Positions 41,670 to 47,096 of a stretch of 64,000 nucleotides of DNA are shown one piece after another. This DNA comes from Thermodesulfovibrionales bacterium (GTDB lineage Bacteria > Nitrospirota > Thermodesulfovibrionia > Thermodesulfovibrionales > SM23-35). The notes beneath the pieces were generated by a model. The model made no database searches, was not told where the DNA came from, and saw only the letters and a list, made by a program, of their open reading frames with translations. The stretch is taken from assembly GCA_963715195.1 (NCBI GenBank), contig CAVQRT010000002.1:256001-320000 (forward strand), read 5' to 3'. The stretch's first letter is position 1; each line of letters opens with the position of its first letter. Both the position numbers and the translations under genes were made by a program.

Positions 41670-43129
41670 TTAGAATGTGAGCGCGAGACCGTGGACAATC
41701 TGGGCAACTCCCTTATCCTCGCCGCCCAGAAGTACGTTGGTGTCCTTATAAAAATCGCCTGCGTCAAACCAGCCTGCTTCAACAAAGTACGACAGGTTCT
41801 TCGTAATTGTGTAATTGAGCTTCGCATCAACTTCCCATCCGAGGCTGATCGTCCACGCTCTGTCTGTCTCCTGTTTCATCTTCGATTACTCGTTCCCAGC
41901 CCTTCGTCTCTGAAGCATACAGAAGGAATCCGTCGAGAGAGAGGCTCAGGTCTTTCATCGGGGTCACATCCACGCCTAAGTTATAATATGTGGTGTTTGC
42001 GATACCAGTATTCGTGGTGTTGCCACCAGGTGTTGTAGTAAGTTTCGCAAGCAAGGACGCTGTTCTGACCGTCCGCTCATAAATCTGCGTATAGTGGACG
42101 AGCCGTGCAGTTGCACCGTAGTCAGGCCCCTGCTGGGTCTGGAATTCTTCACAATCTTTATCAAAGAGATCATCATCACCGCTGCCATATGCAAAGGATG
42201 CCCTGATGTTTACAGGATCAATCATATAGCCCAGTTTCGCAAATACAGCCCATCCTTTCGGCTTGATGTCACTGTCTTCCAATTCATAGTTCTTAATTTT
42301 TCCGAACTGCATATCACCCTCTGCCGCATAGCTCAGACCGGAAATCATGCCTTTGGCATGGACACCGACATTTTGGAAATTGAGCTCGTCAACGTTGTTC
42401 TGCAAATAAGCAGGCACCGGCTCAAAGTCTTCATCTACTTCACCAGTAGTCAGTGGACGGACAGTTGCCGTCGCTGTGTACCCAAACATAATTAACACCT
42501 ATCATGTTGTCCTTGTCCCACTGGTATGTGGCAAGAGCAACATAACCGTCGAGGTCATCGGTGTGATTTAATACATCGCCCTCATTTAACTTTACGGTAC
42601 CTACAGCGATATGAAGTTCCTTCATCGGATCGGTCCAGAGGAGCAGTGCATCATCGCCGAATCTCTCATTGTTGAGGTATATCTTCTCGCCGAGGCTGAT
42701 AGGCATATGGCCGATCTTTATACCGGCTGGTACACCCATCAGCCCTGTCCCAGCATACTGAATCCATGCCTGCCTGATGAGGATATCTGCATTCGGTTTG
42801 GAATCATAACCACGTGCCTTATCACCCCAGTACCAGAGTCCGCTATTGGCGCTTCCGCCGCTTGCAGTCTCTAATTCAATCATCCCGCGAAGGCTATCGG
42901 AGACTTTTGCATCGACTGTGAGATAAACATTTTCATGCCAGAATGCATGGGAATTTGTATCCGCAGGGACTTCATTCTGTCCAGATAATCCGGATACATC
43001 CTGGACCCACCAGCCTTTAACCAGAATCTTACCGCCCAGTGTAATTTCCGGTTTGTCTTCTGCAAAGGCAGAAAACGCAAAACTTAATACCAGAAATACA
43101 CCTAACAATACTGCCAGATATTTCTTCAC
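41670..43129 (-). CDS. outer-membrane beta-barrel porin (alginate-export-like), with two 1-bp frameshifts (~42455, ~41848)
   Basis: Signal peptide ...AFSAFA, amphipathic strands, LGWEVDAKLNY, C-terminal LALTF; the three ORF pieces join if single extra bases are removed. Confidence 0.75.
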
Positions 43130-44847: not shown

Positions 44848-44878
44848 TGACTCATAGCAAACGCTATTCTATATGGTT

Positions 44879-44942
44879 GTCATTCCCGCCTGCCGGGAAT
44901 CATTCCGAAAGCCAAGAAAGATTCTGGCCGAGCAGGAATGAC
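44879..44942. repeat. REP-like palindrome (family C variant) between convergent genes
   Basis: GTCATTCCCGCCTGCCGGGAATC...GATTCTGGCCGAGCAGGAATGAC. Confidence 0.7.
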
Positions 44943-44964: not shown

Positions 44965-46410
44965 TCAGCCTTTTATCACTCCCATCGGCCTCAACCGCGC
45001 AACCTTCCGTGAAATCCCCGCTTTATGAACCACATCGACAACATTGGTAATGTCTTTATACGCTTCTGACATTTCTTCCGCAAGTGTTTCACGCCCTGCA
45101 GACCTGACAATAATCCCTCTGTCCTCCAACTCTCTCCAGATCGCACGTCCCTTTGCCTTTTTGATCGCCTGATGCCTCGACATCACCCTGCCTGCGCCAT
45201 GACAGGTCGATCCAAAGGTCTCCTTCATCGCTCTTTCAGTTCCCAGGAGGACAAATGATGCCCTGCCCATGTCACCCGGAATCAGCACCGGCTGTCCGAG
45301 CGGTCTGTAAATCCCGGGCAATTCGGGGTGATTCGGGGGAAAAGCCCTTGTAGCGCCCTTCCGGTGAACTATCAGTTTCAGTCTTCTACCGTTCACCTCA
45401 TGCTCTTCAATTTTGGCAATATTATGAGCAACATCGTATATGAGACTCATGCCGAGTTGCCCCGGTGACATTCCAAATACGCTGATAAACGTCTCCCGCG
45501 CCCAGTGCATAATGCATTGTCTGTTTGCCCATGCATAATTAGCAGCCGCCCGCATTGCAGCGAGATAATCCAGGGCCTCGGGGCTTCCGACAGGTGCACA
45601 GGCAAGTTCCTTGTCCGGGAGGTCGATCTTATATTTCCTTACCGCCCGTTCCATAACCTCAAGGAAGTCGGTGCATACCTGATGACCAAACCCCCTCGAA
45701 CCGGTATGGATCATGACCGTGACCTGATCCCTGAAAAAGCCTAAACCGTTTGCTGCCGCCTCATCGTAAATCTCGTCGACGTACTGCACCTCAAGAAAAT
45801 GATTGCCTGATCCGAGAGTCCCCTGTTGAGCCCTGCCGCGTTCAAATGCTTTTGCACTAATGAGAGAGGGGTCTGCACCGTCTATGCATCCGCCCGACTC
45901 TGTTTTTTCAAGGTCTTCGGCATATCCAAACCCCTGCTCCACAGCCCAGCGCGCTCCTTTGAGGAGGAGTTTTCTTTCGGCTTCAGCATCGAGGCGTATT
46001 TTACCCTTTGAGCCGATACCCGATGGTATTTGATTCTGAAGGACCCCTACGAGGTCTTTGATCCTCGGGGCAACCTCAGCCCTTGTGAGGTTGCTCCTGA
46101 GGAGACGAACCCCTCAGTTTATGTCATAACCAACGCCGCCAGGCGAGATGATGCCGTCCTGCATATCAAAGGCTGCCACCCCTCCAATAGCAAAACCGTA
46201 GCCCGTATGGATATCAGGCATCGCCAGCGATGATTTCACGATGCCCGGGAGCATTGCGACATTCGCTACCTGATCGATTGCTTGCATTTCAAGCTCCTGT
46301 TCCAGAATATCATCGACATAAATGACACCGTTCACCCTCATCCCCGGCTTGAAATCAACAGGGATTTCTATCTTAGTACCATCAATTCTCCTCAGTTTCT
46401 CTATTGCCAT
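44965..46410 (-). CDS. rtcB: RtcB 3'-phosphate/5'-OH RNA ligase with an in-frame TGA (codon 99, 46114-46116) at the catalytic Cys; probable selenoprotein, 481 aa
   Basis: ORFs 46114-46410 and 44965-45942 share one frame and the gap between them is open: [50 protein letters not shown] and STCHGAGR are all intact. Confidence 0.88.
46062..46103 (-). promoter_or_regulatory. putative bacterial SECIS hairpin downstream of the rtcB UGA
   Basis: UCCUC-A-GG-A-GCAACCUCA [CAAGGGC] UGAGGUUGC-C-CC-GAGGA; starts at nt +11 after UGA; perfect 9-bp upper stem. Confidence 0.7.
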
Positions 46411-46448: not shown

Positions 46449-46628
46449 AAAAGTGCGGATGTTGTGAGAAAAATTATTTTTCGATACCGTAGTGTACACT
46501 GAACCGATGGTTAAGTGCATATTTTTACCCAGAGAGCGATGAAAGATATTTCAATCAAATCATCGGGTTAAATAATTTTTTGTCCGCCTCGGCGGATTCG
46601 CAGAGGCAAAAGGGATGTCTGAACTTTT
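46449..46628. mobile_element. MITE-like element, family A, copy 2, with a nested TCCGCCTCGGCGGA palindrome
   Basis: Homologous to 10836-10982, with about 30 bp extra near the right end. Confidence 0.7.
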
Positions 46629-46631
46629 GGG

Positions 46632-47096
46632 TTATATATCAAAAATAATCTCAGTCTCCCATATACGATCTTTTTTTTCTATTTTCAGACGGTGATAGGT
46701 GGCAGCCTTAATGAGCAGCTTTCCTTCATGGCGCTCCGAATCGAACTCCTCGCCATATACGATTGCCGTGATTCTGAAAGCCTCACCCACGAGCAGACCT
46801 CCTCCTCGAGTGGGGAGGGTAATGGAGGTGGTGAATTCAGTGATAGTAATTTTTTTGCCGATAAATCCGTAGGTGTCAAAATGAAAAATCAGCTCATTCA
46901 GCCACGAAACAAGGAGGCCATCGAGCGAATGACTTTCGACCGAAACTGTTATCGATTTTTGATCGGTGAGCAGATCGGTATTCGTAATGAGGCTGTACAT
47001 TCCCAGCGCAGCATGAACGAAGAGATCCTGTCTGCTCTTTCCGAAAGCCCTTATCCCGGCATCACCCGCAACGTCAAGGATTTCAAACTTTTCCAT
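46632..47096 (-). CDS. archease (RtcB activator)
   Basis: FEILDVAGDAGIRAFG, LLVSWLNEL, IKAATYH, C-terminal IIFDI. Confidence 0.92.
   Translation of the reverse strand: MEKFEILDVAGDAGIRAFGKSRQDLFVHAALGMYSLITNTDLLTDQKSITVSVESHSLDGLLVSWLNELIFHFDTYGFIGKKITITEFTTSITLPTRGGGLLVGEAFRITAIVYGEEFDSERHEGKLLIKAATYHRLKIEKKDRIWETEIIFDI

Follow-up and report, generated by a model that had tools for sequence, protein, structure and literature searches.

The window, a stretch of 64,000 nucleotides from a Thermodesulfovibrionales genome, carries on its minus strand a long-type rtcB gene with a single in-frame TGA, two hairpins in the coding sequence behind that codon, and an archease gene upstream (Table 1). 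Positions behind the codon are given below as nucleotides counted from the UGA.

Table 1. Features of the rtcB locus in window coordinates
Feature	Position	Strand	Basis or proposed role
rtcB, archaeal/long-type RNA 3'-phosphate/5'-OH ligase, 481 aa, Sec (U) at 99 (putative)	44965..46410	-	Frame, alignment, Pfam
In-frame UGA on the metal-bridging Cys98 site of P. horikoshii RtcB	46114..46116	-	Alignment, contigs, relatives
Long hairpin, +11..+52; 9-bp core 46094-46070; stem conserved and covarying, loop variable	46062..46103	-	Proposed spacer
Distal 6-7-bp hairpin, +58..+72; GUA triloop 46050-46048	46042..46056	-	Proposed SelB-binding SECIS core
Archease, RtcB activator, directly upstream of rtcB	46632..47096	-	Pfam PF01951, E 2e-35
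Dispersed repeat of ~135 bp between archease and rtcB	46449..46582	.	27 further blastn matches in the genome

The rtcB gene and its surroundings

Gene calling had yielded two rtcB fragments (46410-46114 and 45942-44965), which the original prediction took for one frame broken by a single TGA. This proved correct: both belong to one minus-strand frame that, translated with TGA as U, runs for 481 residues with its sole internal TGA at codon 99 (46116-46114). The translation aligns end to end and unbroken with P. horikoshii RtcB (E 1e-186), placing the TGA on Cys98, and a profile search covers Pfam RtcB (PF01139) in full (1-426 of 426, 590 bits, above cut-off). The remaining ligand motifs are intact, as had been noticed: D96, N203/H204, H235, H329 and H404 are present, as are K351 and K480. 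In place of the Cys98 that bridges both metals in the family the codon is TGA, where selenocysteine (Sec) at position 99 would, by alignment, substitute for the bridging Cys. The genome has no second rtcB match, and the first in-frame Met after the TGA lies 134 codons downstream. The N|C junction of the protein holds no intein (NF038162 scored 778 bits against a cut-off of 1150, with no insertion), and Rfam gave no match at gathering level around the gene.

Read support for the TGA was checked in contigs from DNA runs X1, X2 and X10, one of which may be the source sample; they span the codon at a depth of about 7-10 and keep the TGA, with no difference listed there. RNA run X20 gave two 151-base pieces only, both downstream of the codon. 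TGA is elsewhere an ordinary stop, as had been predicted, ending 359 of the 984 long open reading frames in the genome as well as rtcB itself, and a global reassignment of UGA is therefore ruled out.

In 69 of 80 TGA-rtcB loci an archease-like gene lies no more than 1.5 kb from the codon. The repeat between archease and rtcB is probably a later insertion, and inside it a terminator-like hairpin (46462-46443) stands about 33 nt before the rtcB start. A second dispersed intergenic repeat, with 41 further blastn matches in the genome, flanks rtcB at 44877-44942. No promoter of the sigma-70 type was detected for the archease-rtcB operon on the minus strand. At 41827-43129 on the same strand, two consecutive overlapping open reading frames in different frames look like one frameshifted outer-membrane protein.

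Two hairpins downstream of the UGA

The strong hairpin that had been proposed to start at +11 was confirmed: a perfect 9-bp stem, GCAACCUCA/UGAGGUUGC at +20..+44, grows to 16 bp from +11 to +52, with a z of -4.3 against shuffles. It is far weaker in Cys-encoding orthologues, with -23.1 kcal/mol in 14 TGA genes and -8.4 kcal/mol in 42 Cys genes (intein-bearing G046 left out) and synonymous-codon z of -4.2 and -0.45, respectively; the regions compared differ in GC (0.59 in TGA and 0.44 in Cys genes), for which the codon-shuffle control allows. In this hairpin 10 sequences show a swap of one particular pair, brought about by synonymous changes on both sides. Across both helices taken together, 8 of 23 pairs show two-sided changes and none of 500 shuffles scored as high, although the relatives are not independent, which makes P values and shuffle control too favourable.

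The hairpin, which the original prediction had proposed as SECIS-like, is real and covarying, but its loop is not conserved, and it is probably only half of the signal, the other half having been missed. The window's clade contributes 39 TGA genes, placed in it by tree or from sequence other than that of the hairpin region; among these the loop occurs as 36 different sequences, one of them without any G. The bacterial SECIS consensus, as described in section 5 of PMC13188914, has a G in the first two loop positions and a loop 16-37 nt after the UGA; the loop in the window, CAAGGGC at +29, has no G in its first two positions.

The second, distal hairpin carries the motif GACCUC-GUN-GRGGUC, which was defined on 14 same-order TGA genes (14/14, versus 3/42 Cys relatives) and then tested on held-out genes. 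It recurs in 21 of 25 held-out Sec genes of the clade, the other four folding the same stem, and in none of 90 Sec genes of other phyla or otherwise outside the clade. Loop positions G64 and U65 are invariant in all 39 clade genes. The hairpin is conserved mainly by sequence, with few two-sided changes, and it overlaps a coding motif: the peptide there is DLV[GE][VA] in 29/29 Sec proteins and varies in Cys proteins. The long hairpin is retained as well in the three Cys genes that have the distal one, which is what recent reversion would predict. RNAalifold recovered the distal hairpin and not the long one, and its preferred fold pairs the UGA.

Outside the clade the arrangement is canonical. 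In 88 of the 90 distinct TGA genes there, a short hairpin whose G-first loop lies near +22 passes a simple bacterial SECIS test. Two registers of this element occur; one of them shows two-sided pair changes (G-C/C-G, A-U/U-A), accompanied by changes in the encoded peptide (KTSLV, RTGLV, RSGLE). The 39 clade genes lack it and share the long and distal hairpins instead, while a crude test finds some G-bearing hairpin in the canonical interval (+16..+37) in 23 of them. In the window itself the GUA loop stands at +64, 63 nt from the UGA, beyond that interval.

It is possible, if doubtful, that the long +11..+52 hairpin acts as the SECIS in its own right, bound by a loop-tolerant SelB, with the distal hairpin as a helper or pause element. 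The long hairpin begins at +11 like the upper stem of the E. coli element (PMC8659212), is very stable and covaries, and the G-bearing loops of some kind in 23/39 clade genes fit as well. Its variable loop and the failure of the window's loop to follow the G rule count against this, as do the invariant G64 and U65 and the tighter pairing of the distal hairpin (97% versus 84.5% of cells); moreover, other TGA-bearing genes of this genome have candidate SECIS elements with short G-first loops that resemble the distal one. On balance we favour the long hairpin as a spacer and the distal GUN loop as the SelB site, because the distal G comes to lie at +22 (64-42) once the long hairpin's 42 nt are subtracted, and +22 is the place of the G in the SECIS of other phyla. 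A ribosome at the UGA would hold +1..+10 in its mRNA channel, +11..+52 would fold as the long hairpin and shorten the path to the distal loop, and SelB could then bind the GUN loop, held at about the canonical loop position, and deliver Sec-tRNA.

Spread and history of the codon

As had been anticipated, relatives carry TGA at the same codon. An rtcB match was found in 58 of 61 genomes of the order, and the 58 loci examined have TGA in 15 and TGC or TGT in 43; in the 57 that could be parsed the codon is exclusively TGA, TGC or TGT (14/26/17). In the phylum sample TGA is confined to this order, being absent from the matches of 58 outside genomes, a few of which are partial. A pattern scan of GTDB recovered the same TGA in at least 120 species from several phyla, the matches listed including Nitrospirota, Thermodesulfobacteriota, other deltaproteobacteria, Acidobacteriota, Binatia, Eisenbacteria and Gemmatimonadales. 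Long flanks were available for 80 TGA loci: in 71 of these a full frame of 378-383 aa follows the TGA, in six the frame runs off the locus, and in three it is interrupted. Around one deltaproteobacterial genome, 37 of 46 rtcB matches contain a single TGA. The best 120 full-length database proteins all have Cys and none has U.

All 15 same-order TGA genomes have selA, which is near-universal in the order (56/61) and therefore does not separate Sec from Cys genes; among 50 TGA-rtcB genomes tested, 48 have a selA match, 45 of them over cut-off. Several features by which bacterial selenoproteins are recognised are present: an in-frame UGA on a conserved Cys, a frame conserved on both sides, selABCD, and Sec/Cys orthologue pairs.

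Several genomes deserve separate mention. G055 has one Cys and one Sec rtcB copy (L067, L069), and G120 has two TGA copies. In G012 and G024, which carry Cys-rtcB, the only selA matches are fragments with stops (loci L025, L026, L033; G012, G024, G032), a pattern that suggests that part of the family is losing the Sec trait. The RtcB of one family in the order has an intein exactly at its Asn|Cys junction (L078, L250 and L251 in G046 and G217), so that the codon recoded here is elsewhere the +1 nucleophile of an intein. A metagenome scan with the pattern His-Asn-TGA-GVRL, which would reveal an RtcB intein with Sec at +1, gave six matches; none was rtcB, and no form with both Sec and intein was found in this way.

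In both trees, which excluded partial, duplicate and intein-bearing loci, Sec stands near the base of the window's clade and Cys is scattered through it. For the 72 proteins of the clade the Fitch count is 13 changes, whereas a single gain would entail 18 losses. Cys-only lineages part the clade from other Sec groups (SH-aLRT 95-99, quick tree), and since its SECIS differs as well, a separate gain of Sec in the window's clade is the simpler reading. Many selA-bearing relatives have reverted to Cys and the advantage of selenium is therefore modest; frequent reversion says that the gain is small or conditional.

Such switching also bears on the idea that the UGA is mainly a selenium-sensing switch, by which inefficient Sec insertion ties the ligase level to selenium supply with no catalytic benefit. 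The 13-18 Sec/Cys switches imply that Cys works, and the retention of both copies in G055 agrees with this idea. However, the recoded codon is exactly that of the catalytic ligand, and Sec has been kept in most genomes of another lineage (the 37 of 46 matches above). We regard the idea as improbable, although it is compatible with decoding of the UGA as Sec, the reading preferred here.

Decoding of the UGA and relation to known systems

A search for selA, selB, selC and selD had been proposed, and all were found: the genome carries selA, selB (one over cut-off), selD, itself with an in-frame TGA, and one canonical tRNA-Sec (73 bits). This is the sole UCA tRNA found and has an 8-bp acceptor stem, a 5-bp T stem (8/5 type) and G73; the 4237 calls of a relaxed ARAGORN run were treated as noise.

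Some ten other genes in the genome show TGA where a Cys would be expected, followed by short G-first hairpins near +20 to +30. Further in-frame TGA candidates lie at G000 C3:45305, C10:5473, C14:10236, C3:283983, C31:75637, C30:111617, C6:5873, C30:257346, C31:143571 and C7:413649. Judged by motifs, these would comprise FdhA, two DsbA-like proteins, a DsbG-like protein, an arsenite methyltransferase-like, a DsrE-like and a DUF1573-like protein, two secreted A-A-U-A-G-S-K proteins and one without a label. A gene for a NuoB-like 20-kDa subunit (PF01058; G000:C33:44863-45381, minus strand, L263) has TGA at the first Cys of GLA-CC-AIEM and a short GUG-loop hairpin, and is a candidate for a second uncatalogued selenoprotein. 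Across 31 same-order genomes one TGA occurs in 8 of 33 matches to this subunit, its position having been examined in G000 alone; the 119-family selenoprotein table of a 2026 review lists only subunit E.

The original prediction also allowed for SECIS-dependent recoding of the UGA to Cys, whereby a selC*-type tRNA-Cys(UCA) and SelB would make an ordinary Cys-RtcB by an unusual route. A second, short CysRS-like gene is present (G000:C7, L274:6081-7307; 408 aa, divergent from tyrS, catalytic domain alone detected) and speaks for such a system, but two of its positions that we take to be Zn ligands are altered, no tRNA or Rfam match was found within the 14 kb around it, and no selB copy lies near it. 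Genes for selC* tRNA-Cys, of 8/4 type with U73, are described from Thermodesulfovibrio, Nitrospirae and deltaproteobacteria, some with UCA (PMC5389517). The UCA tRNA of this genome, the sole one found, is instead 8/5 with G73, a single selB exceeds cut-off, and the set that marks selC* systems (an 8/4 U73 UCA tRNA-Cys, a second selB, an adjacent cysS*) was not found. The genome is 98% complete and a tRNA may therefore have been missed, yet little in it supports this route, which we consider very unlikely. Least credible of all is a true stop through pseudogenization, gene splitting or assembly error: the Cys-only database proteins and the three interrupted loci would fit it, but independent contigs carry the TGA, in at least 120 species the stop is without exception a TGA, sits at a single codon and is followed by an intact frame, RNA structure is selected in TGA genes only, and a product restarted at the next Met of this sole rtcB would be without the metal ligand.

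We put the probability that the UGA of rtcB is decoded as Sec at roughly 0.92, the residue being putative at the protein level. The single frame, the codon position, the Sec machinery and the RNA structure selected in TGA genes only are observed directly and, with the Sec/Cys alternation among relatives, support the Sec-liganded RtcB first proposed. Very likely the product would be a full-length RtcB in which Sec bridges two catalytic Mn(II) ions, to judge from the residues that align. In P. horikoshii RtcB, Cys98 ligates both Mn, with Asp95/His203 and His234/His329, and His404 is guanylylated (PMC10630183). Archease activates RtcB for GTP/Mn-dependent sealing of RNA 3'-phosphate and 5'-OH ends, and the two genes form an operon (PMC3973293). 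By analogy, the RtcB of the window would be guanylylated on H404 with the aid of archease and carry out this GTP/Mn-dependent ligation, sealing 2',3'-cyclic-phosphate or 3'-phosphate to 5'-OH ends of broken or spliced RNA as Cys-RtcB does. The active-site Cys of human RTCB is sensitive to metal-induced oxidation, which inactivates the enzyme (PMC12263435), and resistance to over-oxidation is the benefit of selenium proposed for [NiFeSe] hydrogenases (PMC13188914 section 7). Selenium might likewise provide a metal ligand of low pKa, resistant to irreversible over-oxidation at an oxidation-sensitive site, and this would be the likeliest gain.

The gene is very probably a Sec-containing variant of a known enzyme, and the SECIS layout of two hairpins is probably new. 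RtcB is absent from the whole of Table 1 of the 2026 review (119 families); full-text literature searches, whose coverage leaves out most subscription journals, returned no report of a natural Sec-RtcB; passage searches of the main texts of deep-Sep and BSepDB gave no match for RtcB or ligase; and NCBIfam (June 2026) returned no seleno-RtcB model. With slightly better than even confidence we propose a widespread but uncatalogued family of RNA-repair selenoenzymes with a selenolate bridging two Mn(II). In this order's branch a covarying 42-nt spacer hairpin would set a GUN loop, bound by SelB, at a distance of 63 nt from the UGA; such a long-range SECIS, natural to bacteria, would be overlooked by distance-limited searches and probably evolved separately from that of other phyla.

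Catalogued prokaryotic selenoproteins are mostly redox enzymes or carry redox motifs, and a Sec-liganded RNA ligase would extend selenium into RNA repair. Natural U/C pairs, some within one genus, exist at the site whose oxidation inactivates human RTCB (PMC12263435), and why Sec is used thereby becomes testable in a non-redox enzyme. Standard gene calling splits rtcB in the at least 120 species concerned. If confirmed, the two-hairpin signal would relax the bacterial SECIS distance rule, imply further missed selenoproteins, and allow the SECIS to be moved away from Sec-adjacent residues in recombinant work.

The known systems closest to this one are the Cys-type RtcB proteins (P. horikoshii PH1602, PDB 1uc2, 4dwq, 4dwr; T. 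thermophilus TTHA1785, 2epg; human RTCB), which match over the full length (E 1e-186 to 1e-147) with the same ligands and guanylylated His404, but have as bridging residue a Cys (Cys98/Cys122) where the window's gene has UGA. Like the archease-rtcB operon described in PMC3973293, the window and 69/80 TGA loci have archease upstream on the same strand; the window differs by its Sec codon and by the dispersed repeat between the genes. With SelB/SECIS-dependent genes (PMC13188914 section 5) it shares the UGA at a Cys column, selABD with tRNA-Sec, and a G-U-loop hairpin in the coding region, whereas the conserved G-U loop of this order lies at +64 behind a 42-nt hairpin, outside 16-37 nt. FdhA and the [NiFeSe] hydrogenases (PMC13188914 section 7) use selenium as a direct metal ligand, as proposed for this RtcB; they are redox enzymes with Mo/W or Ni, whereas RtcB catalyses non-redox nucleotidyl transfer at a two-Mn site.
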